A stretch of DNA of 61,816 bases, taken from the IMG/VR virus record IMGVR_UViG_2740892042_000003; one strand, given 5' to 3'. Shown piece by piece: positions 2,597-61,816 of this stretch. The notes under the pieces were generated by a model. The model worked only from the letters and a program-made list of their open reading frames with translations, did not search any database and was not told where the DNA came from. Both the position numbers and the translations under genes were made by a program. The stretch's first letter is position 1; the number at the start of each line of letters is the position of its first letter. The DNA comes from a virus (taxonomy: Duplodnaviria > Heunggongvirae > Uroviricota > Caudoviricetes).

Positions 2597-2757
2597 ACAG
2601 CCCCTCGTTTATTATTTATCTCCTCAGCCAGCCGCTGGGCTTTCAGTGGATTTTGGATAACAGAAAGGCCGGGAAATACCCAGCCTCGCTTTGTAACGGA
2701 GTAGACGAAAGTGATCGCACCTCCCCGGATATTATCGTGAGGATGCTTCATCGCCAT
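2569..2757 (-). CDS. lambda orf60a-like protein
   Basis: 62-aa [14 protein letters not shown]... immediately upstream of exo as in lambda. Confidence 0.5.
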
Positions 2758-10077: not shown

Positions 10078-10378
10078 CGGGCAAAGAGGCAATTATTCAT
10101 TACCTGGGGACGCATAATAGCTTCTGTGCGCCGGACGTTGCCGCGCTAACAGGCGCAACAGTAACCAGCATAAATCAGGCCGCGGCTAAAATGGCACGGG
10201 CAGGTCTTCTGGTTATCGAAGGTAAGGTCTGGTGAACGGTGTATTACCGGTTCGCTACCAGAGAAGAACGGGAAGGAAAGGTGAGCACGAATCTGATTTT
10301 TAAGGAGTGTCGCCAGAGTGCCGCGATGAAACGGGTATTGAGGGTATATAAAAGAACATCAATGGGTACACAATGATG
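10074..10378 (+). pseudogene. ren: ren, inactivated by in-frame TGA after codon 53
   Basis: MTGKEAIIHYLGTHNSFCAPDVAALTGATV...GKVW then TGA at 10233-10235 where lambda Ren has Arg; downstream Ren codons continue in frame. Confidence 0.75.
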
Positions 10379-10443
10379 AAACAGGTGAGTTGAGTTCAAA
10401 CTGTAGTACAATTCTCTCCAGTTTGAACAGGAAAGAATATGTT

Positions 10444-10776
10444 ATGAACCCTTATATTTATCTTGGTGGTGCAATACTTGCAGAGGTCATTGGTACAACC
10501 TTAATGAAGTTTTCAGAAGGTTTTACACGGTTATGGCCATCTGTTGGTACAATTATTTGTTATTGTGCATCATTCTGGTTATTAGCTCAGACGCTGGCTT
10601 ATATTCCTACAGGGATTGCTTATGCTATCTGGTCAGGAGTCGGTATTGTCCTGATTAGCTTACTATCATGGGGGTTTTTCGGCCAACGGCTGGACCTGCC
10701 AGCCGTTATAGGCATGATGTTGATTTGTGCCGGTGTGTTGGTTATTAATTTATTGTCACGAAGCACACCACATTAA
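10444..10776 (+). CDS. emrE: small multidrug resistance efflux transporter EmrE
   Basis: 110 aa MNPYIYLGGAILAEVIGTTLMKFSEGF... matches E. coli EmrE; AT-rich flanks. Confidence 0.95.
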   Translation: MNPYIYLGGAILAEVIGTTLMKFSEGFTRLWPSVGTIICYCASFWLLAQTLAYIPTGIAYAIWSGVGIVLISLLSWGFFGQRLDLPAVIGMMLICAGVLVINLLSRSTPH

Positions 10777-11020
10777 AAATAATTTCTTTTAAAAGACTGA
10801 AATATGGCGGTTCATATCTTTACATGGGCCGCTTTTGTTAATGTTTTTAGTTTTTGTGTATTCTTTTGTGCCTTCAAGATTATTGCGTAAGCAAATTGCA
10901 ATACGATTATTGTTGTATATTCAAAAGAATGTGATCGTAATTGTCTTTTTAAATAAAAATTAAACAAAAATTATATCTCACCACTAAGGTTTATAAAAGC
11001 ATACGTTAGCAGGTGTCACC

Positions 11021-22536: not shown

Positions 22537-22726
22537 GAGGTTGCCCTGTATTCAGTGTCGCTGATTTGTATTGTCTGAAGTTGTTTTTACGTTAAGTTGA
22601 TGCAGATCAATTAATACGATACCTGCGTCATAATTGATTATTTGACGTGGTTTGATGGCGTAGATGCACGTTGTGACATGTAGATGATAATTATTATCAT
22701 TTTGCGGGTCCTTTCCGGCGATCCGA

Positions 22727-22760
22727 CAGGTTACGGGGCGGAAGGCGCGCGGGTTTTCGC
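22727..22760. other. helper prophage cos site with divergent cosN
   Basis: flanks match lambda cosQ/cosN/cosB (cgggtcctttccggcgatccgacaggttacgggg ... cgcgggttttcgctatttatgaaaattttccgg) but central 12 nt read gggcggaaggcg instead of lambda gggcggcgacct. Confidence 0.6.
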
Positions 22761-22924
22761 TATTTATGAAAATTTTCCGGTTTAAGGCGTTTCCGTTCTT
22801 CTTCTCCGTAACTTAATGTTTTTATTTAAAACACCCCCTGAAAAGAAAGGAAACGACAGGTGCTGAAAACAGGCCTTTTGGCCTCTGTCGTTTCCTTTCT
22901 CTGTTTTTGTCCGTGGAATGAACA

Positions 22925-23444
22925 ATGGAAGTCAACAAAAAGCAGCTGGCTGACATTTTCGGTGCGAGTATCCGTACCATTCAGAACTGGCAGGAGCAGG
23001 GAATGCCCGTTCTGCGAGGCGGTGGAAAGGGTAATGAGGTGCTTTATGACTCTGCCGCCGTCATAAAATGGTATGCCGAAAGGGATGCTGAAATTGAGAA
23101 CGAAAAGCTGCGCCGGGAGGTTGAAGAATTACGGCTGGCCAGCGAGGCAGATCTTCACCCCGGAACACTTGAATTTGAGCGCCATCGCCTGACTCGTGCT
23201 CAGGCGACGGCGCAGGAACTGAAAAATGCCAAAGAATCGGCTGAAGTGGTGGAAACCGCATTCTGTACTTTCGTGCTGTCGCGTATAGCAAGGGAAATAT
23301 CCAGTATTCTCGACGGTATTCCTCTGTCGGTGCAGCGACGTTTTCCTGAGCTGGATAACCGGCATATTGATTTCCTGAAACGGGATATCATCAAAGCCAT
23401 GAACAAAGCAGCCGCGCTGGATGAACTGATACCGGGGTTGCTGA

Positions 23445-23470
<26 letters not shown>
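22925..23470 (+). CDS. Nu1: terminase small subunit Nu1
   Basis: 181 aa near-identical to lambda Nu1. Confidence 0.95.
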
Positions 23471-26451
<2,981 letters not shown>

Positions 26452-26528
26452 AACCCTTGCTGCGTCTGGAATGTCGTTTTCCATGCTTTTGATGACCGTT
26501 CATCACCCTTCCAGTTTTTCGCGGTTTT

Positions 26529-26581
26529 GTGTATTGCAATGTGTATTGCAAATTGGCGATCGGGATGGGTGTGTATTGCAA
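26529..26581 (+). repeat. integrase arm-type repeats (left end of island)
   Basis: gtgtattgcaa at 26529, 26541, 26571, directly upstream of island int. Confidence 0.55.
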
Positions 26582-26599
26582 ATCTCTTGAGGGCTTTTA

Positions 26600-27841
26600 A
26601 TGGCTATTGAAAACAAACTCAGTGACAAACTGTTAAAGAGTCTTGTCGGAAAACGGCAGGACAAACAAAAAACAATAGCGGATGGGCGCGGGTTGTCTGT
26701 GCGTGTAAGCATGGTTGGGGGGATCAGCTTTGTTTTTTACTATCGTCTTGGTGGCAGGGAATCCCCTCCGGTATGGCTTACACTTGGTCGCTATCCTGAC
26801 ATGTCTCTTGCAACGGCCAGGCGCATGCGTGATCAGTGCCGTGAATGGCTGGCTGAAAATCTGGACCCCCGCAGGCAAATAAAACTTGCTGCCGAAAAAA
26901 CTATGCAACCAGTGACCGTAAGGGATGCGCTGTTTTACTGGTACGACAATCACGCCACAACAGCCAGAAAAGAGCATGAATATTTAATAAAACGATTTGA
27001 AAAGCATATCTTCCCCTATATCGGTGATATGGCTATAGAACAGTGCAAATTACACACATGGCTTACCGTCTTTGACAGGATCAAAAAAAATGCGCCTGTT
27101 ATGTCTGGTGCAATTTTTCTTGATATCAAACAGGCGTTGCGTTTTTGTCGCGTCAGGCAATACATCGCGTGCGATCCCTTTGGAGATATTAACGTAAGTT
27201 ATGTCGGGCGCTCATCCGGTATAAGGGATCGCGTTCTTAATATCAATGAAACCGCTGATGTATGGTCTTATGCTTACGGTAATAATTTGCTAACTCTGTC
27301 ATCAATATATAACCGAAGAATAATGGTTATCTGCCTGGTGTTTGGTTGCCGACAGCAGGAGGCGAGGCTATCCACCTGGGACGAATGGGATTTAAAAAAC
27401 TGGGTATGGACAGTCCCAAAAGAGCACAGCAAAAACAAGGAGGCTATAGTAAGGCCTGTTCCTGACGGAATAAAACAATGGATCGTTAATCTTTACGCAG
27501 AAACAAAAAATCGCGGTTATGTTGTCGGTTGTGCTTTGCAAAGGGCGACAATAACAGGGGCTGCAAACAGAATATGCAGGCGTCTTGGTCATGATACTAA
27601 TGGCTTGTGGTGCATACATGATTTCAGGCGCACATTTTCCACTACGCTTAATGATATGGGGGCGGATCCTTATATTGTCGAACTTCTTTTAGGTCATAAA
27701 GTGAAAGGGGTTGCTGGTGTTTACAATAAAAGCAGGCATATAAAGAAAAAACTTGAGGTGCTTAATATGTGGGTTAATTACCTTAATACGATAGCAGGAT
27801 TTAACAACAACGTTATCGAGCTTAATAAAGAGGTGGTGTGA
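26600..27841 (+). CDS. tyrosine integrase (P4/PICI-type)
   Basis: 413 aa; C-terminal HDFRRTFSTTL...LLGHK...GVAGVY catalytic region. Confidence 0.9.
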   Translation: MAIENKLSDKLLKSLVGKRQDKQKTIADGRGLSVRVSMVGGISFVFYYRLGGRESPPVWLTLGRYPDMSLATARRMRDQCREWLAENLDPRRQIKLAAEKTMQPVTVRDALFYWYDNHATTARKEHEYLIKRFEKHIFPYIGDMAIEQCKLHTWLTVFDRIKKNAPVMSGAIFLDIKQALRFCRVRQYIACDPFGDINVSYVGRSSGIRDRVLNINETADVWSYAYGNNLLTLSSIYNRRIMVICLVFGCRQQEARLSTWDEWDLKNWVWTVPKEHSKNKEAIVRPVPDGIKQWIVNLYAETKNRGYVVGCALQRATITGAANRICRRLGHDTNGLWCIHDFRRTFSTTLNDMGADPYIVELLLGHKVKGVAGVYNKSRHIKKKLEVLNMWVNYLNTIAGFNNNVIELNKEVV

Positions 27842-27842
27842 T

Positions 27843-28100
27843 ATGGCAATTTATTCTCTTGTTGATGAAAACGATTTGCGCACAATGAAGGACATTGATC
27901 GGTTCATTCGTGAAAAAGAGTGCATAGCACTTACCACGCTGGCAAACTCAACACGCTGGAAAATGGAGCAGGCAGGTAAATTCCCGCGACGTATCAAGAT
28001 CGGTGAACGTGCTGCAGGGTATCGACTTTCAGAGGTTCAGGCATGGATCCGTGGTGAGTGGCATCCTGGATGGAAACCTGGAAAAACAAAACAGCAATAA
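27843..28100 (+). CDS. AlpA-family regulator/excisionase
   Basis: 85 aa; directly after int; AlpA-like HTH region. Confidence 0.7.
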   Translation: MAIYSLVDENDLRTMKDIDRFIREKECIALTTLANSTRWKMEQAGKFPRRIKIGERAAGYRLSEVQAWIRGEWHPGWKPGKTKQQ

Positions 28101-28156
28101 CCAGTAAATAATGCCCCTCATCACGAGGGGTTTTTTGTCTATAAGGTAAAAACGCG

Positions 28157-28735
28157 ATGAATAAAAATATTGCCGTGACGGGCAAGGGGTACGCTCGTCC
28201 AGTGAAAAAATTCTGCGATATTCGTGATCTCGTCGTTCTGCGCTTTGATAGTGTGAACGTTCGTGTGGTGTATCTGAACGGCGATCCGTGGTTTGTTGCA
28301 AAAGATGTTTGTGCTGCGCTGGAACTAACCAATTCGCGTACGGCGTTGCAGATGCTTGATGATGATGAAAAGGGAGTAAATTTAACTTACACCCCAGGAG
28401 GAAATCAGAATATGAGAATTATCTCTGAGTCAGGTTTCTACAAACTAATAGCCCGCAGCCGCAAAGCAACGACGCCTGGCACATTTGCTCATCGTTTCAG
28501 TAACTGGGTATTCAGAAATGTGATACCAGGTATCAGAAAAACGGGGACTTATGGTATCCCGTGGGGTGCATTACAGGATTTTTCCCGCCGTAAAGAGCAA
28601 TATCAAATAAGTGCCAGCGAGAAGGGGAGGGAGCTACAGGCATGTAAGCGCAAAAAGCGTGAGCTGGAGGAAGAAGAAAAAACGCTGATACGTGAATATC
28701 AGCCTGAGTTTTACTTTGGTAACCGCATTCAGTGA
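28157..28735 (+). CDS. Bro-N domain antirepressor-like protein
   Basis: VVYLNGDPWFVAKDVCAALEL... Bro-N signature. Confidence 0.7.
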   Translation: MNKNIAVTGKGYARPVKKFCDIRDLVVLRFDSVNVRVVYLNGDPWFVAKDVCAALELTNSRTALQMLDDDEKGVNLTYTPGGNQNMRIISESGFYKLIARSRKATTPGTFAHRFSNWVFRNVIPGIRKTGTYGIPWGALQDFSRRKEQYQISASEKGRELQACKRKKRELEEEEKTLIREYQPEFYFGNRIQ

Positions 28736-29068
28736 CAAAACAAAGGCGACCGCAAAAGGGTCGCCAGTGGGAACAAGGGAAAACAAAAGCATCACCAACA
28801 ATGCCACATTTGCGGCTGGTGGGCAATGTGATCAGTCAGATTTGGTTCGTTCCAAGGTTTGCAACGAGAGCTTTTTCCTGTGCTCTTTAAGGAATTTCTC
28901 AAGAGCAAACGAACAAGGTGCGAATCTTTCTGATTCATGTTCATGCGCTATATTTTTGCGTCGCCTCTTACGAGTTGGTGATGGTGTTTTGGTTGATTCT
29001 GTGTCGCTCATGGTGCTGTCCTGTAAAGCAATGCGCCTGCGTTCCTCAAACTATGGCGCTGATATTGG

Positions 29069-29374
29069 CTATTCATGCTCTTTGACCTTGCGTCGCTGGA
29101 GTTCTTCACGCGCGACGGTGACGAGTTGCCCGATCTCCTCGGCTGCTTTGATGCCGATTTGTTCGACCTTAGCCAGGGCATCCAGTGACGACACAAGGGG
29201 ATTTTCTCCGCTGCCTTCTGCTTGGCGGCGGGCTATTTCTCCGCGCATGGCGGTTACGATAAATCCGGCATTGCTTTCACCGTCCAGCTTAACGGATTCC
29301 ATCCCTTGCATAACATCTAGTGGGACTCTGACAGTTGTCAGTTGTGATTTTGCGTTTTTGTTAGCCGTTGCCAT
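29069..29374 (-). CDS. putative ribbon-helix-helix repressor
   Basis: 101 aa; N-terminal QLTTVRVPLDVMQGME beta-strand/helix pattern; divergent from promoter/operator at 29436-29473. Confidence 0.45.
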   Translation of the reverse strand: MATANKNAKSQLTTVRVPLDVMQGMESVKLDGESNAGFIVTAMRGEIARRQAEGSGENPLVSSLDALAKVEQIGIKAAEEIGQLVTVAREELQRRKVKEHE

Positions 29375-29435
29375 TTCTGAAACTCCTAATCATCGGTGTG
29401 TTTCAGTATACACAAAAAAAGAAATACAAAAAGCC

Positions 29436-29473
29436 TTGACGTGTGTTTCATGCGCTCATAACATGAAACACAC
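29436..29473 (+). promoter_or_regulatory. sigma70-like promoter overlapped by a 12-bp perfect inverted-repeat operator
   Basis: ttgacg-17 nt-taacat; inverted repeat gtgtgtttcatg (29441-29452) / catgaaacacac (29462-29473). Confidence 0.5.
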
Positions 29474-29564
29474 CGAAAGGATTGTTGAAATACAAAGAGC
29501 AACGCCCCGCAGTGCTGGGAACACATACGGGGCGTCTAACCAACAACGTAAACTAGGAGCCGTT

Positions 29565-29762
29565 ATGGTTGCTGTAAATCATATACCACACCTTGTACAC
29601 ACACAAACGGCCTTTGTGTGGCGTTTTCTGGCACTGAGTGCCGGAGAATCTCAAATCATCCACGTAACCGCCTGGACGGAACGCGAAGCGCGTAGCCGTT
29701 GCCCGTCCGGTTGTGTTGCTGTATTCGCTGCAAAAATCCGCCAGGGAGTGAGTCATGCTTAA
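29565..29762 (+). CDS. small Icd-like protein (host cell-division inhibitor family)
   Basis: 65 aa MVAVNHIPHLVHTQTAFVWRF..., AGGAG RBS; pattern of P4-type Icd-like proteins. Confidence 0.5.
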   Translation: MVAVNHIPHLVHTQTAFVWRFLALSAGESQIIHVTAWTEREARSRCPSGCVAVFAAKIRQGVSHA

Positions 29763-29940
29763 AACCTTCCGTGTATTTGCCCGAGCTGTTAACCCAATAG
29801 GCCACACAATTGGTATCGCTCAGAATGTGAAGGCTGTTAATGTTCAGACGGCTATTGCTGCGGTGAGAAGCGAATCATCAGAATATGGCTTATCACAAGT
29901 CATTATTTCAGCAGTGTATGAATTAAAAGAGGTGCATTAA
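29755..29940 (+). CDS. hypothetical protein
   Basis: 61-aa ORF in island early operon. Confidence 0.3.
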   Translation: MLKTFRVFARAVNPIGHTIGIAQNVKAVNVQTAIAAVRSESSEYGLSQVIISAVYELKEVH

Positions 29941-30131
29941 TGCAGGAAATTACATTACACGAAGCCGCTGAACGTGCGCACCAGACAGAAATTATTTGCC
30001 GCCTTCTTGAGGTATACCCGAACAAAATTACAGATGCTGATATATCCGCACTGGCGAGCCTACTGGCGCGTCTTTCGGGAAGTGTCGCTAGTTTTTTGAT
30101 TGAGGAAGAAAGTAAGCTGGTGGGGGATTAA
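29940..30131 (+). CDS. hypothetical protein
   Basis: 63-aa ORF, tightly packed in operon. Confidence 0.3.
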   Translation: MQEITLHEAAERAHQTEIICRLLEVYPNKITDADISALASLLARLSGSVASFLIEEESKLVGD

Positions 30132-30353
30132 ATGAATACAGAACGGGAAGTCTTTTTTAAATTGTTAGCATGTGCAGAAAGTTCATTAACTTTAAATAAT
30201 TCAGCAAAAGCAATATTAAATATGTGGCTTGATTGCATAAATGACAATGAAGATGCAAATATTGCTTATGGCCTGTTGTCACTTATTGATGAATCAGCAG
30301 AAAAACTCAATGACGCAATAAATAGTGCCCTGCTATCAAATAAGTCGAGTTAA
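30132..30353 (+). CDS. hypothetical protein
   Basis: 73-aa ORF, AT-rich codon usage unlike neighbours. Confidence 0.3.
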   Translation: MNTEREVFFKLLACAESSLTLNNSAKAILNMWLDCINDNEDANIAYGLLSLIDESAEKLNDAINSALLSNKSS

Positions 30354-30370
30354 GTCGAGGAATAAATAAT

Positions 30371-30670
30371 ATGGAAATGAAAAATTCTGGCTTTATTGCT
30401 AGCGGCCCCGCTCGACCTGAATTTATGAACGGCGATATTTACCGCGATAAATACGGCGGCACGGTAACGATTAAAGGCGTGGCAGAACGGCGCATCACTT
30501 ACCGCCGTGAGGGGTATAGCTATGACTGCGTGATGCCTGTTTATCAGTTCCGGCGTGATTTTTCCCTGGTATATGCCGCACCCCGCAGTAAGCCCATCAG
30601 CAGGGAAAAAGCGTGGGGAAATATCCAGAAAATGAAAACCATGATTAACGGATTCAGAGGTAAAAAATGA
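30371..30670 (+). CDS. hypothetical protein
   Basis: 99-aa ORF overlapping primase start. Confidence 0.4.
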   Translation: MEMKNSGFIASGPARPEFMNGDIYRDKYGGTVTIKGVAERRITYRREGYSYDCVMPVYQFRRDFSLVYAAPRSKPISREKAWGNIQKMKTMINGFRGKK

Positions 30671-32418
30671 AACTGGCACCGAACTTAAAAAAACAGCCAC
30701 GCGACAGACTGACAGAGATAATCATCTTTGCAGGTAGTGATGCGTGGAGCCATGCGAAAGAGTGGCAGGAATGGGCGGGTAAACATATTGCCGCCGACGA
30801 TGTGCCGCCTGTCGTGTTGGCTGATGAGCAACTGAAAAACATCACCGATTACCGGATCATTGATGAAGATCGTCAGTGTGTGCGTGTTTACCGCGCAGGA
30901 CATATCACAGAGCACAGCATGACGCAGATTGTTACGTTACTGGCTGTGGCTGGAGTGAAGACCGTACACGAATACGCGGGGATTACTGACACCAGCCCAG
31001 TGGATTTATCCGACCAGTTGCCGCGACTCAAAGAGGAATGCGAGCGTGGGGAAAGCCTGGTGCTTAATCTTCCGACGAAGCAAAAGGCGCAACTTTCACA
31101 GATGGCAGACAGTGAGCGCGCGCAGCTGCTTGCCGAGCGCTTTGATGGCGTTTGTGTGCATCCGGAAAGTGAAATCGTTCACGTATGGCGCGGCGGGGTA
31201 TGGTGTCCGATCAGCACAATGGAGCTGAGCCGCGAAATGGTGGCGATCTATTCAGAGCACAGGGCCACTTTCAGCAAACGCGTGATCAATAACGCCGTTG
31301 AAGCGTTAAAAGTTATTGCCGAACCAATGGGCGAGCCGTCCGGCGATTTGCTGCCGTTCGCCAATGGTGCGCTTGACCTGAAAACGGGGGAATTTTCCCC
31401 GCACACGCCGGAGAACTGGATCACCACGCACAACGGCATTGAGTACACGCCACCAGCACCAGGGGAGAACATCCGCGATAACGCGCCAAACTTTCATAAA
31501 TGGCTTGAGCACGCAGCCGGAAAAGACCCGCGCAAGATGATGCGTATATGTGCCGCGCTGTACATGATTATGGCGAACCGGTACGACTGGCAGATGTTCA
31601 TTGAGGCCACCGGAGACGGGGGAAGCGGTAAGAGTACATTTACCCATATTGCCACCCTGCTTGCTGGCAAACAGAACACCGTAAGCGCAGAGATGACATC
31701 ACTCGATGATGCAGGAGGGCGCGCGCAGGTTGTCGGGAGTCGTCTTATCGTCCTTGCCGATCAGCCGAAATATACGGGGGAAGGCACGGGCATCAAGAAA
31801 ATCACGGGAGGCGATCCCGTTGAAATCAACCCGAAATATGAGAAGCGATTCACGACGATAATAAGGGCGGTGGTACTGGCAACCAATAACGACCCGATGA
31901 TCTTTACCGAACGGGCCGGAGGTGTGTCACGCCGTCGGGTGATTTTCCGGTTCGACAACATTGTAAGGGAGGACGAAAAAGACAAGGAATTACCGGAAAA
32001 GATAGCGGCAGAAATCCCCGTAATTATCCGCCGCTTGCTGGCTAATTTTGCTGACCCTGAAAAGGCACGGGCTTTATTACTGGAACAGCGTGACGGTGAT
32101 GAAGCTCTGGCAATAAAGCAGCAAACGGATCCGGTTGTTGAGCTTTGCGCGGCGCTGGAGTTTCTGGAGGAAGCTCGTGGGCTAATGATGGGCGGTGGTG
32201 GTGACACCGTGAAGTACACGACCAGAAACAGCCTTTACCGTGTCTATATGGCCTTCATGGCATATACAGGAAAGGGGAAATGTTTGAGCGTGAATGAGTT
32301 CGGAAAGGCTATGAGGTCAGCGGCGAAAGTTTACGGATATGAATATATTACGCGAAAAGTTAAGGGAGTCACGCAGACCAACGCAACGACTACTGATGAT
32401 TGCGATGCGTTTTTATAA
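30667..32418 (+). CDS. primase-helicase (P4 alpha/PICI Pri-Rep-like)
   Basis: 583 aa; Walker A GDGGSGKST and D5/P4-type helicase region. Confidence 0.85.
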   Translation: MKLAPNLKKQPRDRLTEIIIFAGSDAWSHAKEWQEWAGKHIAADDVPPVVLADEQLKNITDYRIIDEDRQCVRVYRAGHITEHSMTQIVTLLAVAGVKTVHEYAGITDTSPVDLSDQLPRLKEECERGESLVLNLPTKQKAQLSQMADSERAQLLAERFDGVCVHPESEIVHVWRGGVWCPISTMELSREMVAIYSEHRATFSKRVINNAVEALKVIAEPMGEPSGDLLPFANGALDLKTGEFSPHTPENWITTHNGIEYTPPAPGENIRDNAPNFHKWLEHAAGKDPRKMMRICAALYMIMANRYDWQMFIEATGDGGSGKSTFTHIATLLAGKQNTVSAEMTSLDDAGGRAQVVGSRLIVLADQPKYTGEGTGIKKITGGDPVEINPKYEKRFTTIIRAVVLATNNDPMIFTERAGGVSRRRVIFRFDNIVREDEKDKELPEKIAAEIPVIIRRLLANFADPEKARALLLEQRDGDEALAIKQQTDPVVELCAALEFLEEARGLMMGGGGDTVKYTTRNSLYRVYMAFMAYTGKGKCLSVNEFGKAMRSAAKVYGYEYITRKVKGVTQTNATTTDDCDAFL

Positions 32419-32434
32419 AAAATGGCAATGGTTA

Positions 32435-32670
32435 TCTACCTTGTCTACCTGACTGAAATAAAATACTTTTATTTCAATGTATTAATGCAGGTAGATAACT
32501 ATTTTTCACTGTCTACCTGTTATCTACCTTATCTACCCATTTTTGTAGACAGGTAAGGAGACGGGTAGAGATGAGGTAGACAGCTATTTGGGGCTGTCTA
32601 CCTCCCTGAAACCCGCGCCATTACTGGCCTGATAACTAATCAAGTAGACAAGGTAGACAAGGTGGTGGTG
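32435..32670. repeat. island replication origin iterons
   Basis: more than 12 copies of gtctacc / ggtagac in both orientations immediately 3' of the primase gene. Confidence 0.65.
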
Positions 32671-32707
32671 CACAAAAAACTTTTTAAACGAGGGGGTAAA
32701 AATAAAA

Positions 32708-32965
32708 ATGCACACATCAGGAAAACTGAACAAACATATAAAGCCACATTACCGCGCCCTTGATATGGCTGAACACTGGCTAAGGGTGGCGATTAAGGCA
32801 ATAGACCGCAACGCCGGGGAAGGATACGCGAAAGCACATCCCGAACTGATAAGCGCATTCATGACAACGGCGGCTGCAAACTTTGCCACGCTGACCGAAC
32901 GGGAGATTGCCGAAGCGGAACAGGTGACAACCATCAATGTTAAAACCGGAGAGCAGACAGCATGA
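32708..32965 (+). CDS. hypothetical protein
   Basis: 85-aa ORF overlapping ssb start. Confidence 0.35.
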   Translation: MHTSGKLNKHIKPHYRALDMAEHWLRVAIKAIDRNAGEGYAKAHPELISAFMTTAAANFATLTEREIAEAEQVTTINVKTGEQTA

Positions 32966-33384
32966 CAGCACAGATAGCGGCTTACGGGCGGCTGGTGGCT
33001 GACCCGCAGTTAAAGACCACCAGCAAAGGGACACAAATGGCGATGGCGAGTATGGCGGTTCCCCTGCCGTGCAGCCAGGCAGATGACGGAACGGCGACGA
33101 TGTGGTTATCCGTCCTGGCGTTTGGCAGACAGGCCGACGCACTGGCAAAACACCACAAAGGCGAACTGGTGAGCGTGGCGGGTAACATGCAGGTAAGCCA
33201 GTGGACAGGCCAGAACGGCGAAACGCGGCGGGGCTGGCAGGTTATCGCAGACAGCGTAATCAGTGCGCGAACGGCGCGACCGGGCGGCAAAAAAGGCCAG
33301 CAGGGGCAGGCCACTGACGCACTGAACAGGGCAAAACAACAGTCGGGGAATGATGATCCGTACGGCGATAATATACCGTTTTAA
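32962..33384 (+). CDS. ssb: single-stranded DNA-binding protein
   Basis: 140 aa; OB-fold N-terminus, Gly/Gln-rich linker and C-terminal ...DDPYGDNIPF tail. Confidence 0.8.
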   Translation: MTAQIAAYGRLVADPQLKTTSKGTQMAMASMAVPLPCSQADDGTATMWLSVLAFGRQADALAKHHKGELVSVAGNMQVSQWTGQNGETRRGWQVIADSVISARTARPGGKKGQQGQATDALNRAKQQSGNDDPYGDNIPF

Positions 33385-33595
33385 ATTCTGCAAACAAAAA
33401 GATGCCGGAAAAAAATAGATTTTCCGGCATGCTACATAAATCCCGACCAAAGGAAGTAAATACATTAACACGAATTATCAGCACTGAAGTTGTTACGGCA
33501 TATTTTATACAACATTGCACTTGGTTGCATGTATTCGCATAGCAGACATCGGTAATAGAATATATTCACAATTATTTGTAATGAATGTAAAGAGG

Positions 33596-34643
33596 ATGAG
33601 TATGGTTGATTTATATTCGCCTACACAGCTTGTGCAGGTGGCTAATGCTGAAGATGTGCAAAAAAAAATTAAATGCGTTGTTTACCAGTTTGTTTTTCAC
33701 TCGCTCGGTAATGTTTGAATCGAGAGACATTATTCTTGATACGATCGACGATCCAAATATCCCGATCGCGGCGTTTTGCTCTCCTATGGTGGGCAGTAAA
33801 GTTTCACGAGATGAGGGATACGAATCAAAAACAATTCGTCCAGGTTATATGAAGCCGAAAAGCAGCATTGATCCAAATAAGTTAGCTGTGCGCCCTGCTG
33901 GTGTGTCACCTGAGCAATACAATGCTTTTGGGGCGCGTAATATTAAAGTTAAACAGGCGATTGTAAATCAGGCTAAAGCTATTCGTGCACGTATTGAATG
34001 GCTTGCTGTTCAGGCAATCACAACGGGGAAAAATATCATTGAGGGCGATGGTATTGAACGTTATGAGCTGGACTGGAATATAAAACCACAAAATATCATC
34101 ACTCAGTCTGGCGGTACTGAGTGGTCAGGTAAGGATAAAGAAACTTTTGATCCAAATGATGATATTGAGAGCTACGCAGAATTTAGTGAGGGCGTCACTA
34201 ATATCATCATTATGGGTGGTAATGTATGGAAGAAATACCGTTCATTCAGAGCGATAAAAGAGGCTTTGGATACCCGTCGTGGTTCTAATTCCGAACTGGA
34301 AACGGCCCTTAAAGACCTTGGTGATTCGGTGAGTTTTAAAGGGTATATGGGCGATGTTGCGATTGTTGTTTACAGCGGGCGTTATACCGACGAGGACGGA
34401 ACAGAAAAACATTTCCTTGATCCTGATTTGATGGTGCTTGGCAATACGGCTCTTCAGGGGATTGTCGCCTATGGCGGTATTCAGGATCCGGAGCTAATCC
34501 GAATGGGGCTGACTAAAGCCGAACTTGCACCGAAAAACTATATTGTGCCTGGTGATCCGGCTATTGAATATGTGCAGACACATTCAGCACCACAGCCAAT
34601 ACCGGCCCGCATCAATCGTTTTGTTACCGTTCGCATTGGCTAA
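33596..34643 (+). CDS. gpE-like major capsid protein, frameshifted at an A9 tract
   Basis: AAGAGG RBS and ATG at 33596; MSMVDLYSPTQLVQVANAEDVQKK aligns with lambda E N-terminus, then homology continues in +1 frame after A9 run 33660-33668 (LNALFTSLFFTRS... to end); about 40 percent similar to prophage E. Confidence 0.75.
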
Positions 34644-34652
34644 GGGGGAGCA

Positions 34653-34994
34653 ATGGCTACTCATTACACTGAACTCATGGCTGGCACTGAAGCACTGGTG
34701 ACTACGCTGGGGATATTTTCAGCTAATAAAGGGGTAATTCCTGCATTTACGCCACTGATGCAGGAAGATGCAACAGGTGCACTGGTGGTATGGGATGGTT
34801 CGAGCGTAGGTAAAGCGGTTTATGTTTCCGCTGTACAAATCGACACAGCGAAAAAAACACAGGCACAGGTTTATAAGACAGGTGTTTTAAATGTTGATGC
34901 TCTGAACTGGCCTGAGTCTGTAAAAGAACTGTCGGCAAAGGTTGCCGCGTTTGTTGGCTCAGGTATTTCTGTTCAGCCGCTGGCTCGTGTGTAA
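34653..34994 (+). CDS. gpD-like head decoration protein
   Basis: 113 aa; TPLMQEDATGALVVWDGSS aligns with lambda [21 protein letters not shown]. Confidence 0.7.
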   Translation: MATHYTELMAGTEALVTTLGIFSANKGVIPAFTPLMQEDATGALVVWDGSSVGKAVYVSAVQIDTAKKTQAQVYKTGVLNVDALNWPESVKELSAKVAAFVGSGISVQPLARV

Positions 34995-35005
34995 AGGGGG
35001 ATACA

Positions 35006-35389
35006 ATGCAGAATCATTACAATGACCTTAAGCCAATTGCCGAAATGATGTATCCGGATCCAGCAGTAGAGGAATTAAAGGCTATTGCTGACAAAATGCG
35101 TTTAAGTGAACGCCTTGTTGATATGAATCAGGTGATGGAACTTACTACCCTTAGCCGTCGCACATTGCTAAACCTTGAGGCTCGCGGAGAGTTCCCCGAA
35201 CGCGTACAGGTTACGGAAGGGCGTAAGGCCTGGTATTTAAGTGAAGTGATCGACTGGATAAACAATATTCCTCGATCTTCTGAATATTGCCGCGTACCTG
35301 TCCCAAAAAAGCCAGATGCGGCGCTATGCCTCAAGATTGAGCGTGTACGTCGCAATGCACGGGATGGTCGCTATAAGTTGATTGGTTGA
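35006..35389 (+). CDS. AlpA-family transcriptional regulator
   Basis: ELTTLSRRTLLNLEARGEFPERVQVTEGRKAWYLSEVIDWI AlpA-type HTH. Confidence 0.6.
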   Translation: MQNHYNDLKPIAEMMYPDPAVEELKAIADKMRLSERLVDMNQVMELTTLSRRTLLNLEARGEFPERVQVTEGRKAWYLSEVIDWINNIPRSSEYCRVPVPKKPDAALCLKIERVRRNARDGRYKLIG

Positions 35390-35445
35390 TGAAATTAGGG
35401 CCCGTTCTGGCTGGCGGGTCCTTTCCGGCGATCCGGTAGGCTACG

Positions 35446-35479
35446 GGGCGGCGACCTCGCGGGTTTTCGCTATTTATGA
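35446..35479. other. island cos site with lambda-identical cosN
   Basis: gggcggcgacctcgcgggttttcgctatttatga, preceded by cosQ-like cgggtcctttccggcgatccggtagg. Confidence 0.65.
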
Positions 35480-35590
35480 GCCTTTTTCGGGTGCTGGTGG
35501 TGGTTTTGTTGCTCGCTCTATCTCTATGAATAAAAAGGAAAAGATAAAGCCAATACACCAACCTGAAACATTACTTAAGTGGGGATATTG

Positions 35591-36133
35591 ATGAAATCGC
35601 ACCTGATGAACAAAAAAAACATGGCGCAAAGCTGCCGTGTAAGTGCGACAGCGTTCGACAAGTGGGGAGTGACTCCCGTTGAACGTAAAGGCCGCGAGGC
35701 GTTTTATGATGTTGCCAGCGTAATAGACAATCGGGTTAGCAATGCAATTAACCAGATTACAGACGACAAAGGCGAGATTGATGATGATGAACTCCTACGA
35801 GTCAGGATCAGATTGCTGACAGCACAGGCAGAGGCGCAGGAGCTTAAAAACGAGCGCGAACGCGGCGACGTTATTGATACAGCGTTTTGTATATACGTGC
35901 TTTCAAAATTGGCGAGTCAGATTTCTTCAATCATGGACAGCCTGCCGCTTGCCATGACAAGGAAGTTTCCCGACATGAAGCCGTCTATGCTGGATGGACT
36001 GAAAAAAGAAGTTATCAGAGCCTGTAACGCATGCGCAAAACTTGACGAAAACATACCGCTGATGCTGTCCGATTATCTGATGGAAACTGCCGGAAACGTA
36101 CCGGATAAGTTGCAGCCGAATAAAGATAAGTAA
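35591..36133 (+). CDS. Nu1-like terminase small subunit
   Basis: aligns with lambda Nu1 (NKKQ...; ELKN...VIDTAFCIYVLSKLASQISSIMDSLPLAMTRKFPDM vs ELKNAKESAEVVETAFCTFVLSRIAREISSILDGIPLSVQRRFPEL). Confidence 0.7.
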   Translation: MKSHLMNKKNMAQSCRVSATAFDKWGVTPVERKGREAFYDVASVIDNRVSNAINQITDDKGEIDDDELLRVRIRLLTAQAEAQELKNERERGDVIDTAFCIYVLSKLASQISSIMDSLPLAMTRKFPDMKPSMLDGLKKEVIRACNACAKLDENIPLMLSDYLMETAGNVPDKLQPNKDK

Positions 36134-36144
36134 CGTAGTACGCT

Positions 36145-36426
36145 ATGACTGAATCCGAAATACTGCGATTAATCCGCCGTGCTTGTGGAATCAGCAAGCA
36201 GCATGACGAACAGGCCACGCAGCCGGACAGCGTGACCGCAGATAATTATGTGCGTGTAGTGGCTGAGGTGATGCGCCGTGACGGTATTGAGCTTAACGGC
36301 GTGGATATGCGCAACATACGAACAAGAGTCCTTGAGTTGCTGGCATATCGTCGCCGTTCTCAACAACGGAGGGAGAGCGCGAAAAATACTTACCAGTGGA
36401 AGAAGCCGGAACGATTGCGGCGGTAA
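36145..36426 (+). CDS. hypothetical Arg-rich protein
   Basis: 93-aa ORF directly after island terS. Confidence 0.35.
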   Translation: MTESEILRLIRRACGISKQHDEQATQPDSVTADNYVRVVAEVMRRDGIELNGVDMRNIRTRVLELLAYRRRSQQRRESAKNTYQWKKPERLRR

Positions 36427-36680
36427 CTTGCTGATATTCCCGATAACGCAAAATTGCGCTGGCTGACTTGTTGCATTGCAAAAAGTTAAGCAGGAAGGCA
36501 CGGCCTGTAAGATGGGATGCAGTAAGTAGTTCAAGGCTACCTTGTGCTGGCACGCACAGTTAAGCCGTCGGTGCTGGATATCCCCCACTGGGGGAAAAGC
36601 TGGCTACATCCCTCACATCTGAGGACTGATAACGCGACATTGCGCTGGCTGGCAAAGTGCAAAATTGCACGATGGCCTAA

Positions 36681-36817
36681 CCCATTGATTATTTCGAAAA
36701 CCTGCAATGCAGGAAATCGGGGAAGTAAGCCTAAGCTATTGATTGTTTCGAAAACCCCCATTGGGGGATGTCGGGAAAGTAAGACTAACCCATTGATTCT
36801 TCCACAATCCTCAATTT
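36681..36817 (+). repeat. three direct repeats near island right end (candidate TerS/cosB-like binding sites)
   Basis: cccattgattatttcgaaaacc, gctattgattgtttcgaaaacc, cccattgattcttccacaatcc, each near a G5/C5 hairpin. Confidence 0.45.
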
Positions 36818-37140
36818 GAGGAGGCCGGAACGTCTACATAGCTGCATCGCCGTAATGATGATTCAGCCCACCAGTCAAATCAGCACAGCAACGACAGAAT
36901 AGCCCGACACAGAAAAACCACGAATATGGGGTTTTTGTTATGACATGGTCATGATGACCACTCATACAAAACAGGTAAAGCCCACCAGCCTGATTAAAGG
37001 TTAACCGGAAAAAAGCCAGGTATCCAATCTCGATATGGGGATCCCTATATCGACATTAACGCCCACTAAAACTGTGCATATATGCATAGAAAAAGCATCC
37101 ACCAGCTTTATGACGGATGCCGCTCATCTTATAAATAATC

Positions 37141-37162
37141 GTGTATTGCAGTGTGTATTGCG
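37141..37162 (+). repeat. integrase arm-type repeats (right end of island)
   Basis: gtgtattgca gtgtgtattgcg, same motif as left-arm repeats. Confidence 0.55.
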
Positions 37163-37235
37163 ACTCCTTTAAACGATAGGTCTGAGCATTCGTAATGTAC
37201 TGTTTTTAAATTTTATTTTTTCCTGTCTTTTCATA

Positions 37236-38015
37236 AAGGCGATGTATGCCGCCACCATTGAGAGTGAGCTGGATACGCAGTCAGCGATGGATTTTATTCT
37301 GGGCGCGAACAGTAAGGAGCAGCGGGACAAGCTGACCGGCTGGATTGGTGAAATTGCCGCGTATTACGCCGCAGCACCGGTCCGTCTGGGAGGCGCAAAA
37401 GTGCCGCACCTGATGCCGGGGGACTCACTGAACCTGCAGACGGCTCAGGACACGGATAACGGCTACTCCGTGTTTGAGCAGTCACTGCTGCGGTATATCG
37501 CTGCCGGACTGGGTGTCTCGTATGAGCAGCTTTCCCGGAATTACGCCCAGATGAGCTACTCCACGGCACGGGCCAGCGCGAACGAGTCGTGGGCGCACTT
37601 TATGGGGCGGCGAAAATTCGTCGCATCCCGTCAGGCGAGCCAGATGTTTCTGTGCTGGCTGGAAGAGGCCATCGCCCGCCGCGTGGTGACGTTACCTTCA
37701 AAAGCGCGCTTCAGTTTTCAGGAAGCCCGCAGTGCCTGGGGGAACTGCGACTGGATAGGCTCCGGTCGTATGGCCATCGATGGTCTGAAAGAAGTTCAGG
37801 AAGCGGTGATGCTGATAGAAGCCGGGCTGAGTACCTACGAGAAAGAGTGTGCAAAACGCGGCGATGACTATCAGGAAATTTTTGCCCAGCAGGTCCGTGA
37901 AACGATGGAGCGTCGTGCAGCCGGTCTTAAACCACCCGCCTGGGCGGCTGCGGCATTTGAATCCGGGCTGCGACAATCAACAGAGGAGGAGAAGAGTGAC
38001 AGCAGAGCTGCGTAA
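37236..38015 (+). pseudogene. B: portal protein B, C-terminal 257 codons
   Basis: MYAATIESELDTQSAMDF... matches lambda gpB residues 277-533; 276 + 257 = 533. Confidence 0.85.
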
Positions 38016-53193: not shown

Positions 53194-53257
53194 TTAGCCA
53201 GGTAACACAGTGTTATTACAGCCCGCCGGTTCAGGCGGGCTTTTTTGTGGAGTGGAT

Positions 53258-55615
53258 ATGGCAGCAGTAAAAATCTCAGGTGTGCTGAAAGATGGTGCGG
53301 GAAAACCAATACAGAACTGCACTATTCAACTGAAGGCAAAGCGTAACAGCACCACGGTACTGGTGAACACGGTGGCCTCTGAAAATCCGGATGAAGCCGG
53401 GCGTTACAGCATGGATGTTGAGTATGGCCAGTACAGCGTCACCCTGCTGGTTGAAGGTTTTCCGCCTTCACATGCCGGGATCATTACCGTCTATGAAGGT
53501 TCCAGACCCGGTACGCTGAATGATTTTCTCGGTGCCATGACGGAAGATGACGTCATGCCGGAGGCATTGCGTCGTTTTGAGGCAATGGTGGAAGAAGCGG
53601 CACGCAACGCCGAAGCCGCCTCTCAGAGCGCAGCGGCGGCAAAGAAATCCGAAACGGCTGCGGCATCATCGAAGAACGCGGCGAAAACCTCAGAAACGAA
53701 TGCAGCTAACAGCGCACAGGCGGCAGCGGCCTCGCAGACTGCATCGGCAAACTCCGCGACAGCAGCCAAAAAATCAGAAACCAACGCGAAAAATAGCGAG
53801 ACAGCCGCAAAGACGAGCGAAACCAACGCAAAGTCCAGCCAGACGGCAGCGAAAACCAGCGAAACGAATGCCAAAGCCAGTGAAACTGCGGCGAAAAATA
53901 GCCAGAATGCAGCAGCCGAAAGCGAGAGTGCGGCAGCTGGTTCTGCGACTTCAGCAGCTGGATCAGCAACTGCTGCGGCTAACAGCCAGAAAGCAGCGAA
54001 GACGAGCGAAACTAACGCAAAGTCCAGCCAGACGGCAGCGAAGACCAGCGAAACGAATGCCAAAGCCAGCGAAACTGCGGCGAAAAGCAGTCAGGATGCA
54101 GCAGCTGAAAGCGAGAGTGCCGCAGCTGGTTCTGCAACAGCGGCAGCTAATAGCCAAAAAGCTGCAAAAACCAGTGAAACTAACGCAAAGACGAGTGAAA
54201 CAAAAGCAGCAGCTAGCGAGACAGAAGCAACGTCAGCCGCAACAAGAGCAGAGAATGCAGCCCGGATTGCAGAAGATGCCGCTGATCCTGCTTCTGTCCC
54301 TCCGCTTCCTGATATCTGGCTACCCTTGAATGATTCTCTGGAAGCGATAACAGGGTATGCCCCGGGCTATAAAACAATAACCATCGGCAGTGATGAAATA
54401 ACAATGCCTGTTAATGGCATATGCCAATTTAGCCGGGCTTCATCTGCAACGTATATTGATAAGTCCGGGCATATTACCGTGGCAGGGAATAACGTTCCTC
54501 GTTTTGAAAAATATGGTTTGCTGATAGAGAATCAGCGAACAAACATGTTCGTAAATAGTTTTAATCCTGATGCCTGGAATAAAAGCGGTGGTATATCTGT
54601 AACATCATCAACAGATGAATTTGAGTTTAAATATGGACGTTTCACGGTAGGAAGCGATATAGCAGGAACGACAACAGGGAGAAATATATGCACAGTTGCT
54701 GGTAACAAAGGCATAGATGTGACTGGCGATGATCAGTACAGTAAAGGTCCGTATGTTACCGCGTCGTTCAGGGTAAGAAGTGATCTCAATGTTCGCGCAC
54801 GTATCCGTTTTGAACGGTATAACTCGGAAGGATACACCTTCCTTTGCGACGCCTATTTGTCATTACAGACCCATGAACTACAAATTACTGGTGGCAATGC
54901 CCAGCTATTAACAGCAAACTTTGAAATCGATCCTGGTAGTGGATGGATATACTTTCAGGCAACACTGAAATGTCTGCCAGAATGGGGAATGGTTGGTACG
55001 CAGCTGCAAATTGCAGCCGACAGAGCTGTGGGGTCTTTTGCAACAGGTGACTGGATAGAAGTAACCACCCCGCAATTCGAGTATGGTGCTTGTGCAACTT
55101 CCTTCATCATAACGACAACAGAGCCAGCGACTCGTGCATCAGATTTATGTAAATTTCCGCTGATGAAAAATATGTATACCATGCCTTTTACGTTCATGGT
55201 GGAAGTCCATAAAAACTGGTTTATTTCTCATAATGCTGCACCGCGTGTCATTGATTCAGAAAATCACCAGTCCGGAGGCCCATTTATTATGGGGTTTGGT
55301 TCTTCTGGAACTATTAGTCAGGACGGTTATTCGTATTGCGATATAGGCGGGGCTAACCGACGTGTATATGAATCATGCGGAGTAAGGGATCTCGTTATGG
55401 GATTCAGGGTTAAGGCTGACGGCATGACATGCTCATTTGCAAATAAGCATATAAGCACTGAAACAAAAACAGTATGGAAATATATTCGTGAAGCAGCCGT
55501 GATTCGTATCGGGGGGCAAACGACGACAGGATTACGACACCTTAATGGTCATATAAAAAACCTCCGTTTCTGGAACAGAGCATTGTCAGATACGCAGCTT
55601 AAGGAATACGTATAA
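53258..55615 (+). CDS. stf: side tail fibre protein Stf
   Basis: N-terminus MAAVKISGVLKDGAGKPIQNCTIQLKA... as lambda Stf; long tandem-repeat region; divergent C-terminal domain. Confidence 0.85.
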   Translation: MAAVKISGVLKDGAGKPIQNCTIQLKAKRNSTTVLVNTVASENPDEAGRYSMDVEYGQYSVTLLVEGFPPSHAGIITVYEGSRPGTLNDFLGAMTEDDVMPEALRRFEAMVEEAARNAEAASQSAAAAKKSETAAASSKNAAKTSETNAANSAQAAAASQTASANSATAAKKSETNAKNSETAAKTSETNAKSSQTAAKTSETNAKASETAAKNSQNAAAESESAAAGSATSAAGSATAAANSQKAAKTSETNAKSSQTAAKTSETNAKASETAAKSSQDAAAESESAAAGSATAAANSQKAAKTSETNAKTSETKAAASETEATSAATRAENAARIAEDAADPASVPPLPDIWLPLNDSLEAITGYAPGYKTITIGSDEITMPVNGICQFSRASSATYIDKSGHITVAGNNVPRFEKYGLLIENQRTNMFVNSFNPDAWNKSGGISVTSSTDEFEFKYGRFTVGSDIAGTTTGRNICTVAGNKGIDVTGDDQYSKGPYVTASFRVRSDLNVRARIRFERYNSEGYTFLCDAYLSLQTHELQITGGNAQLLTANFEIDPGSGWIYFQATLKCLPEWGMVGTQLQIAADRAVGSFATGDWIEVTTPQFEYGACATSFIITTTEPATRASDLCKFPLMKNMYTMPFTFMVEVHKNWFISHNAAPRVIDSENHQSGGPFIMGFGSSGTISQDGYSYCDIGGANRRVYESCGVRDLVMGFRVKADGMTCSFANKHISTETKTVWKYIREAAVIRIGGQTTTGLRHLNGHIKNLRFWNRALSDTQLKEYV
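53620..54240 (+). repeat. tandem in-frame repeats within stf
   Basis: repeated units encoding KTSETNAKxSxTAAK and AAESESAAAGSATAAANSQKAAKTSETNAK; one approximately 200-bp unit is duplicated. Confidence 0.65.
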
Positions 55616-59902: not shown

Positions 59903-60446
59903 AAAAGTTCTCCATTCAATCGTTTTAATGATTGAATATGTATTTTTTATATCTAACTTAATGAGTCAATTACATATTGCTCCACTGTTTATATTTTGTT
60001 TAGTATTGAATGATTATCACAATGCGCTATCTGTTTTTGGTTTAATTATCTGTTATTGTTTCATATTGCGGTTTTACTGTGTGGTTTTTTTATGATTTTG
60101 TGGTGCTTTTATCTATTTAAGTGCCATGCCTTTAGAGGCATATAAGCGAAAATAGCATGAGGTTTATCCTCAATTACTATGTTTTTTAGTACAAAAAAGA
60201 GGGACAAAACTGAGACACATAAGGCCTCACAAAGGTCTGCAAGGCCTCACATGTATTGAGATGTTAATAAAATGTAGGCTTGTAATTTTGATATAAATGG
60301 TAGATAAAACCTTTCCCCAAAATAAAAACGAACGTCAATGAAATCAAACGGTTGAATAAAGTTGATTTTGGCTAATAAAAAGACAATAAAATAATTTTTA
60401 TCATTAAATATCAATGAATTGAACTTAATGTTTTTATATACTGCTG

Positions 60447-60605
60447 CGCCATATGGGCTGGACTGAAGCCGCAGACCTGATTGTTAAAGGTATGGAAGGC
60501 GCAATCAATGCGAAGACCGTAACCTATGACTTCGAACGTCTGATGGAAGGCGCTAAGCTGCTGAAATGTTCAGAGTTTGGCGATGCGATCATCAAGAACA
60601 TGTAA
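60447..60605 (+). pseudogene. icd: 3' fragment of isocitrate dehydrogenase gene icd
   Basis: encodes (M)[49 protein letters not shown], the last 52 codons of Icd, with no upstream icd body. Confidence 0.7.
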
Positions 60606-60868
60606 TTACTATATGTGTTAAATATTATAACGGGCGTATAACACGCCCGTTGTTTTATGTAAGTTTTCTAACGGTTATCAAAATAAGTTATCAAAACCTC
60701 TTAGTTGTTTGGGGTCGGTTGGTCAGTCAGATGACAGTTCTACGGCCAGGTTCCTATTAGACATTCCTCTATTTGGTGGACGCTCGTTAATATTTAGATC
60801 CGCTATGTGTCAGGTGCGGACATTGTTATAAATGCCAATTGATATAACGTCAGCTCGTTTATCTCATC

Positions 60869-61429
60869 TTACAGAACCTCAACAACTTCAAACTCTTCCA
60901 TAATCAACTCCATATCTTCAGAAAAATGACCTTCCTGGGTGAAAAATCGTTGATGCTCTCTCTGCCAATATTCAAGGCTCAAATCGCCTTCACCTTCCTT
61001 GCGAGCTAACTCGGCAGTAACATCACAAAAACACACCAGTTGCATCGACACCAGCCTGGTCACTCATACCGGTACATCCTGGCCGTCAAGGATGATGTTA
61101 TAGCTCCCAATCCTTGGGGCAAATTCTTCCTTCTGATAAGAGGCATAAGAGCCACAGGAGGCCGTTTTAATCCCTTTTTCTATAAGTGCTGCAAGCTCGT
61201 TAGCCAGTTCAGGGCTGTCGCCCATTTGCCAGGCATTCGCGTCCGGATATTTCATCTTTAGTTCATCAACCTTACCCATTACACGTCCTTTCTGATTGTA
61301 AATAATAGAGAAATAGCTGAGCATTAATTGTTCGAATATTAACAGTGATGCTTTCTTGCTAATATCATAGTTCGTTTTTCGCTCAAAGCGGGCTGTTTGG
61401 TTCTTTTTCATGTGGGGTGAGAAATTCAA
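60869..61429 (-). pseudogene. ASCH-domain protein interrupted by in-frame TGA
   Basis: two adjacent ORFs in the same frame separated only by TGA at 61064-61066; C-terminal EGEGDLSLEYWQREHQRFF resembles ASCH proteins. Confidence 0.55.
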
Positions 61430-61479
61430 GGAGGCGTTGAGACGTTTAAATTTTCACAACGCTACTTTGCGCCATTCTT

Positions 61480-61816
61480 TACCTCAATTATCATGATAAC
61501 GATCGGTTTGACGAAAGTGATCGCGCCTACGCGGATATTATCGTGAGTATGCTTCATCGCCATTGCTCCCCAAATACAAAACCAATTTCAGCCAATGTCT
61601 CGTCCATTTTTTTGATGAACTCCGGCACCATCTCGTCAAAACTCGGCATGTACTTCTCATGTCAGGCTACTTATTTCCTGAACGGGGTTTTGCTATCACG
61701 TTGTGAATTTCAGAAGCGGTAATGACGCTGAGCCGTAATTTGTGCCACGCATTATCTCCCTGTTTGACAGCCCTCATGTCGATCCCGGTACGCAGCAGGA
61801 TAATGTCCGGTGCCAT
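61480..61816 (-). pseudogene. exo: second copy of orf60a/exo with internal deletion (runs off window)
   Basis: 61495-61650 is about 90 percent identical to 2700-2850 and 61680-61816 to 3290-3428, with the intervening exo body missing; exo N-terminus [29 protein letters not shown]. Confidence 0.7.

Follow-up and report, generated by a model that had tools for sequence, protein, structure and literature searches.

A degraded lambdoid prophage remnant with an exo pseudogene, lying behind a DLP12-type prophage at icd, almost certainly in Escherichia marmotae

Tandem or adjacent prophages at one chromosomal site are known, and cryptic prophages exchange DNA with lambdoid phages, lambda qsr' from DLP12 and lambda reverse from Rac being examples. 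Phage 21 and elements of the e14 type reportedly integrate into icd. We analysed a viral record (IMGVR_UViG_2740892042_000003), hereafter called the window, a stretch of 61,816 nucleotides that holds a large prophage with intact orf60a and exo genes (copy A) near its beginning and ends in a second, damaged copy of both genes (copy B, orf60a'-exo'). The reading that we favour, and to which we give a probability of about 85%, is that orf60a'-exo' is the relic of an old DLP12-like prophage at icd, and that a newer DLP12-type phage later inserted between the gene and the relic. Serial phage integration and decay at one site is an ordinary, known kind of feature.

Firstly, we characterised the repeat by ungapped offset comparison and BLAST. 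A repeat finder run on the window returned two blocks in the same orientation as copy A, which bears out the claim of a first-pass annotation that orf60a/exo is directly repeated at the window end. Block 1 (2704-2854 against 61510-61660; 151 nt, 93% identical) covers the 5' end of orf60a and the 3' end of exo, and block 2 (3266-3428 against 61654-61816; 163 nt, 89% identical) covers the 5' end of exo. Their BLAST E-values, about 1e-60 to 4e-60 and about 1e-68 to 3e-68 respectively, are well past chance, and uninterrupted identity extends over at most 46 bp in block 1, where the next run is 32 bp, and over at most 23 bp in block 2. The offsets of the two blocks, 58806 and 58388, differ by 418 bp; copy B thus lacks 418 bp of the exo body between the blocks, and the absence of that body had been rightly noticed. 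The limits of the repeat had to be redrawn. It had been made to start at 61480, but 61480-61509 is unrelated to copy A and homology begins abruptly at 61510. The retained piece of orf60a, described as the 3' end, is actually the 5' end (54 nt, 18 codons), because the gene lies on the minus strand. The 5' end of exo (61654-61816) is retained as claimed, and the 3' end (61554-61660), which had gone unmentioned, is kept as well. In a related contig (L004), the homology of block 2 extends 38 bp past the window end into bet; so extended, the block is a BLAST match of 201 bp at 88%, and homology in copy A reaches position 3466, in bet.

Secondly, we compared the coding state of the two copies. Pfam shows in copy A the order bet (RecT), then a complete exo (2748-3428, minus strand; 226 aa; YqaJ, PF09588, E=2.5e-30), then a complete orf60a (2569-2757, minus strand; 62 aa; DUF1317, PF07026, E=1.8e-38), and this exo is 97.6% identical to that of isolated phages, for example Escherichia phage 4A7. 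Copy B is broken in several places. Its orf60a' (61510-61563, minus strand) is homologous over the first 18 codons only, after which the frame enters unrelated sequence; it matches positions 1-16 of the 60 in the DUF1317 profile PF07026, and the full domain is absent. Its exo' consists of a 5' part (61661-61816, minus strand), whose start codon is formed by the last three bases of the window, and a 3' part (61554-61660, minus strand), the last 35 codons, which is out of frame with the 5' part. Roughly codons 55-193 (418 bp) are missing between them, and codon 50 is TAG (61667-61669) where copy A has TGG, so that 49 codons are read. The catalytic core of lambda Exo comprises Asp119, Glu129 and Lys131; going by the lambda Exo structure, the deleted part includes this core. 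At the DNA level exo' remains recognisable as a homologue of copy A, a member of the YqaJ family (89-93%); a complete YqaJ (PF09588) reading frame is absent, and the 49-aa peptide alone gave no Pfam hit. Over its 54 N-terminal codons exo' differs from copy A by 10 nonsynonymous changes, the stop included, and 8 synonymous ones, a ratio that would fit relaxed constraint. Because of the stop at codon 50, the loss of 418 bp and the remaining parts that are out of frame, exo' is a pseudogene, and orf60a'-exo' as a whole (61510-61816, 307 bases at the very end of the window) is, judged by its sequence, a non-functional relic. The end of the window should be annotated as such, and not be called an exo gene.

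The edges of the missing stretch bear on how it was lost. The 8-bp sequence ATTTTCAT occurs in copy A at 2847-2854, at the edge of the stretch deleted in copy B, and again at 3265-3272, 418 bp from the first, which is the length of the deletion. Copy B retains a single copy of the microhomology (TTCTCAT, 61654-61660) at the deletion junction, where the two blocks overlap by 7 nt. The 418-bp spacing of ATTTTCAT indicates a deletion of the slippage type, and we infer slipped mispairing or a microhomology-mediated event as its mechanism, read as it is from the present-day sequence of a different allele, copy A.

Thirdly, we followed copy B beyond the window. It had been proposed to be the left portion of another lambdoid prophage, one that is degraded and without int-xis, and the contigs that continue past the window end support this by their collinear lambdoid fragments. 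In the orientation of the window, the window and L004 together give the order icd tail, e14-like arm, ASCH-domain gene, a break at 61510, orf60a', exo' and 38 bp of bet; L004 then continues with a ren fragment, emrE, an esterase gene, ybcL, ybcM, and nin, holin (S) and cos/nohA fragments. The remnant is collinear for about 5.9 kb beyond the window end, or about 6.3 kb counted from 61510, and is followed by alkene-reductase, LysR and EthD genes, which start about 5.9 kb beyond the window. All of its patches are collinear with the large prophage and in direct orientation. No block of homology that the two elements share is longer than emrE (about 85-545 bp past the window end in L004, against 10333-10793 in the window; 461 bp, 90.7% identical, with perfect runs of at most 52 bp), which falls outside the coordinates considered at first pass; in the cos/nohA fragments, one stretch of 290 bp (90%) and one of 270 bp (85%) match window 22699-23457. 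In the roughly 6.3 kb from 61510 we found no int, cI, O, P, head or tail genes, and within 10 kb beyond the window no second icd fragment or attR at the right end of the remnant. The remnant shows a lambdoid order from which the integration, immunity, replication and structural modules have been lost, and its left end is the e14-like arm. Its ybcL and ybcM are 89% identical to those of K-12, and emrE, ybcL and ybcM taken together are 89-90% identical to the genes of K-12 DLP12. Located directly downstream of icd, the remnant is a relative of DLP12, not DLP12 itself.

The ASCH-domain gene (60869-61279, minus strand; Pfam ASCH, E=2.5e-19 for the joined sequence) carries an in-frame stop at 61064-61066 and is a pseudogene in the window. 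It is a single intact gene call in three related contigs (L003, L005 and L006), is split likewise in two others (L007 and L008), and is uncalled in L004, although that contig is 99.97% identical to the window there. The presence of both intact and split calls among the contigs shows that the pseudogene state is polymorphic. The best match of the ASCH module is in a P2-like prophage of E. coli.

The site is the phage 21/e14 attachment site in icd and not the argU site of DLP12, since the crossover point coincides with the annotated start of e14 within K-12 icd. Alignment of attL (L014), attR (the window) and the empty site (L003) revealed a common core around CTGCTGCGCCATATGGG. The attL side bears a substitute icd tail supplied by the phage, the attR side bears the displaced host-side tail, and the two tails are alike over roughly 215 bp. 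The displaced tail is a 3' fragment of icd at 60442-60605 (plus strand; the last 164 bp of the gene, with an ORF at 60453-60605) on the attR side of the large prophage. Its translation matches positions 306-348 of the 348 in the Pfam Iso_dh profile, the C-terminal tail of isocitrate dehydrogenase, and it shows no difference from the 3' end of icd in L003, where the locus is unoccupied. At the other end of the window, the integrase (1-1143, minus strand), sought as the exact protein, is separated by 114 bp from a complete icd in those contexts that are shown for the 24 contigs read. The 60-kb element is an icd-integrating prophage, with its integrase by icd, its attL and attR tails and an empty site in L003. 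An integrase that adjoins icd, an icd tail held in the window and att sequences that align at icd leave no place for a DLP12/argU setting.

Directly past the icd stop, positions 60606-60696 hold e14-like sequence, which by alignment we attribute to the older element as its left arm. Against the icd tail and flank that K-12 owes to e14, window 60442-60696 aligns at 84.7% identity, and 60606-60696 differs from the native icdC/iraM flank; an e14-like arm in this place is the trace that would be expected from an old integration at icd. The site evidently takes diverse elements. About 25,000 blocks of assembled sequence contain a 50-aa icd-tail peptide, and most of them are E. coli in which icd is occupied by other elements. 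On one such contig (L029, GCA_017332245.1; E. coli), the identical icd-tail peptide is followed by DarT-like and macrodomain genes, which may be labelled a DarTG-type toxin-antitoxin or defence pair, and by another lambda-type integrase.

Compared with K-12 DLP12, the large prophage is collinear and 92-99% identical. The segments common to both are exoD, peaD, renD-emrE-ybcK, ylcH to quuD, essD-rrrD, nohD and tfaX-appY-ompT, the last of them 98.9% identical, and the large prophage is on this comparison a full-length DLP12 relative with a different integration module. A prophage of E. coli strain 582 is 99.8-99.9% identical to it. The right end of that prophage, which holds J, lom, tail fibres, appY, ompT and the icd fragment, matches the window at 99.7% identity as far as 60664, and past the equivalent of this position strain 582 continues with iraM, ycgX and bluR, the usual neighbours of icd in K-12. 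The emrE/ybcK/appY/ompT prophage (window 1-60442; also L014, L015 and L001) is thus found at 99.9% identity in E. marmotae and in E. coli 582, while the host cores are about 93% identical, which indicates a recent spread of the phage across species. An appY-ompT-emrE set carried by a DLP12-type phage that is 99.9% alike in the two species gives a picture of DLP12 before its decay, and of ompT as a gene borne between species by phage.

Two further features were observed within this prophage. An integrative element of about 10.8 kb (26392-37248) splits its lambda-family portal gene into an N-terminal part (25570-26451) and a C-terminal part (37242-38015), which match Pfam PF05136 at positions 2-242 and 238-354; in the 99.8% identical prophage of E. 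coli 582 the portal gene is uninterrupted. A direct repeat of 13 bp, AAGGCGAT(T/G)TATG, flanks the insert. Its genes code for a tyrosine integrase, a Bro-N protein, a D5-type primase, an SSB, a capsid-E-like protein and a Nu1-like small terminase, and it holds a 77-nt copy of the prophage cos region (35414-35490 against 22704-22780, 84%); by its gene content it looks like a capsid-forming, PICI-like phage satellite in the portal gene of its likely helper. Since the insert splits the portal gene, the prophage, though of full length, is in its present state probably not autonomous. The other feature is a family of 126-nt direct repeats (53698-54243; 61-75% identity, with spacings that are multiples of 21) in an 801-aa tail-fibre gene (53210-55615), probably a periodic, collagen-like or similar repeat of the fibre shaft.

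The order of events was established from the related contigs. The 49-aa exo' peptide is present in 85 blocks of the assembly collection, and among the 24 longest contigs read, 10 belong to the L003 type, in which an intact 416-aa icd stands directly by the ASCH gene, the DUF1317 stub, exo', and emrE-like, esterase, ybcL-like and ybcM-like genes. L003 has no prophage at icd and is 99.93% identical to window 60442-61816. Four contigs (L004 to L007) have the appY/ompT prophage between icd and the remnant, arranged as in the window. L004 is 99.97-99.98% identical to the window (99.98% over 10,150 bp), and in L005 and L006 the same appY-ompT right end is preceded by a different set of tail-fibre genes. 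The unoccupied locus of L003 and the occupied loci of L004 to L007 demonstrate that the remnant is the older element and that the prophage inserted between icd and the remnant.

The same contigs speak to the host. The neighbours of the empty site (roxA, phoQ, phoP, purB, hflD, mnmA, nudJ, rluE and icd) are only 90-95% identical to K-12, while these core genes, from roxA to icd, are 99.9% identical to CP072689 and CP146380, both named Escherichia marmotae in a 2026 survey paper (PMC12826111). By way of the near-identical contigs, the host of the window is almost certainly E. marmotae and not E. coli. Neither the ASCH-orf60a'-exo' join nor the whole remnant occurs in any of 5,426 complete E. coli genomes, which rules out E. 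coli proper as the usual carrier. Scans of genome contigs gave no match to a 37-mer across the exo' junction or to a 25-mer from purB of the E. marmotae type.

A different origin for the remnant, which we consider quite unlikely, is that it is the E. marmotae counterpart of DLP12, or a mix of decayed elements, moved next to icd by rearrangement or recombination. Both forms of this explanation agree with a remnant that has no integrase. The identity of its emrE, ybcL and ybcM to K-12 DLP12 (about 90%) is near that of the host core (92-93%). A composite, for example of an e14-like arm, an ASCH module and DLP12-like segments, would accord with an ASCH match that is best in a P2-like E. coli prophage, with the abrupt start of lambdoid homology at 61510 and with a right end that has no icd fragment within 10 kb. 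Against both forms, however, the sequence right after the icd stop is the e14-like arm and not the native iraM flank, and from orf60a' to nohA' the genes keep the order of one lambdoid genome.

An in-place duplication of the left end of the resident prophage, followed by decay, would also give a second copy of the same orientation and gene order as the upstream one. We rejected it as hardly credible: the copies differ by 7-12% whereas the prophage is 99.9% identical to its E. coli 582 twin, the remnant is present without the prophage in L003, and its cargo is different, with esterase-ybcL-ybcM in place of ybcK. The best-matching exo genes of E. coli prophages and deposited phages, all of them intact, are about 93% identical to copy B; with 89-93%, copy A is thus not specially related to it. 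The repeat is homeology between two independent phage lineages, not a duplication, and has no effect by itself. We equally discard a tandem arrangement produced by assembly, through repeat collapse or a chimeric join: prophage repeats are a frequent cause of misjoins, and L008 ends inside the icd fragment, but the same ompT-icd'-ASCH-orf60a'-exo'-emrE join recurs in at least four independent assemblies from two archives (NCBI isolate, ENA metagenome) on contigs of 280-350 kb, exo' is also carried by a contig of more than 1 Mb in one block, and the repeats are too short and too diverged to confuse an assembler.

On the preferred reading of an old relic and a later arrival, a heavily deleted DLP12-like lambdoid prophage would have come to sit immediately downstream of icd in E. 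marmotae. Its exo would have been inactivated at least twice, by the out-of-frame 418-bp deletion between 8-bp repeats and by the change from TGG to TAG at codon 50, and further losses would have taken int-xis and what follows as far as mid-orf60a, as well as the whole bet-to-ren interval. A later DLP12-type phage with emrE, ybcK, rusA, appY, ompT and an integrase of the phage 21/e14 type would then have entered the icd att core by site-specific integration, placing itself between icd and the remnant and leaving two collinear lambdoid elements in tandem. The locus would be a serially used icd attachment site in E. marmotae, and not DLP12. A more speculative idea, which we hold to be doubtful, is that E. 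marmotae (at icd) and E. coli (at argU) independently domesticated a DLP12-type phage, the remnant being a homeologous partner with which the Red system of incoming DLP12-type phages swaps ybcK for esterase-ybcL-ybcM. If so, the same loss from exo to ren in company with a retained emrE, ybcL and ybcM would point to selection for this module.

Finally, we considered recombination between the repeats, which had been predicted to delete the whole prophage along with appY and ompT. Part of this prediction holds: the repeats are direct, so that unequal crossing over would remove the DNA between them, and appY and ompT lie in that interval. The whole prophage would not go. The predicted crossover loses the interval from exo to ASCH, including appY, ompT, the icd fragment and the ASCH gene, and leaves behind int and xis together with some 2.7 kb of left arm. 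Loss of the entire prophage would more plausibly occur through Int/Xis at the flanking icd-tail duplication of about 215 bp. As recombination substrates the repeats appear weak. With a divergence of 7-12% and perfect runs of 46, 32 and 23 bp they would be marginally sufficient, the minimal processing segment for RecA-dependent recombination reportedly being roughly 25 bp, and rejection of the exchange by mismatch repair would be expected at 7-12% mismatches. Longer homologies sit outside the window, in emrE (461 bp) and cos/nohA. The product int-xis-full orf60a joined to exo' or the remnant was absent from the 24 longest exo' contigs and the 24 longest integrase contigs, and comparison of the prophage repeat blocks with the 99.9% identical E. 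coli 582 twin revealed no remnant-type bases, that is, no conversion tract. We infer that RecA or Red could at most use the repeat, as they could several other short and diverged stretches, for a rare deletion or an exchange of modules. The instability that it confers would be minor, deletion being possible in principle, probably rare, and observed in none of these two sets of 24 contigs.

The locus can be set beside three known systems. As in tandem prophages, two lambdoid elements lie collinear and in the same direction, with homology in patches; here, however, we detected no recombinant, deletion product or conversion tract. The integration resembles that of phage 21 and e14, with an integrase by icd, a substitute icd 3' end and a displaced tail at attR. 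It departs from e14 in that the body of the window prophage is DLP12-like, not e14-like. The remnant itself can be compared with K-12 DLP12. In both, a truncated exo of the lambda type (exoD in K-12, exo' in the remnant) lies on the minus strand and is followed first by a large deletion in the early region and then, on the plus strand, by ren', emrE, ybcL and ybcM, the shared genes being about 90% identical. K-12 exoD retains the 3' 304 bp (97% identical to copy A) and its 5' end is gone, whereas exo' retains both ends and the middle 418 bp are gone; a lesion inherited from a common ancestor was rejected, as the breakpoints differ. DLP12 lies at argU with intD and xisD, whereas the remnant lies at icd without int or xis and carries an esterase gene in place of the ybcK of DLP12.
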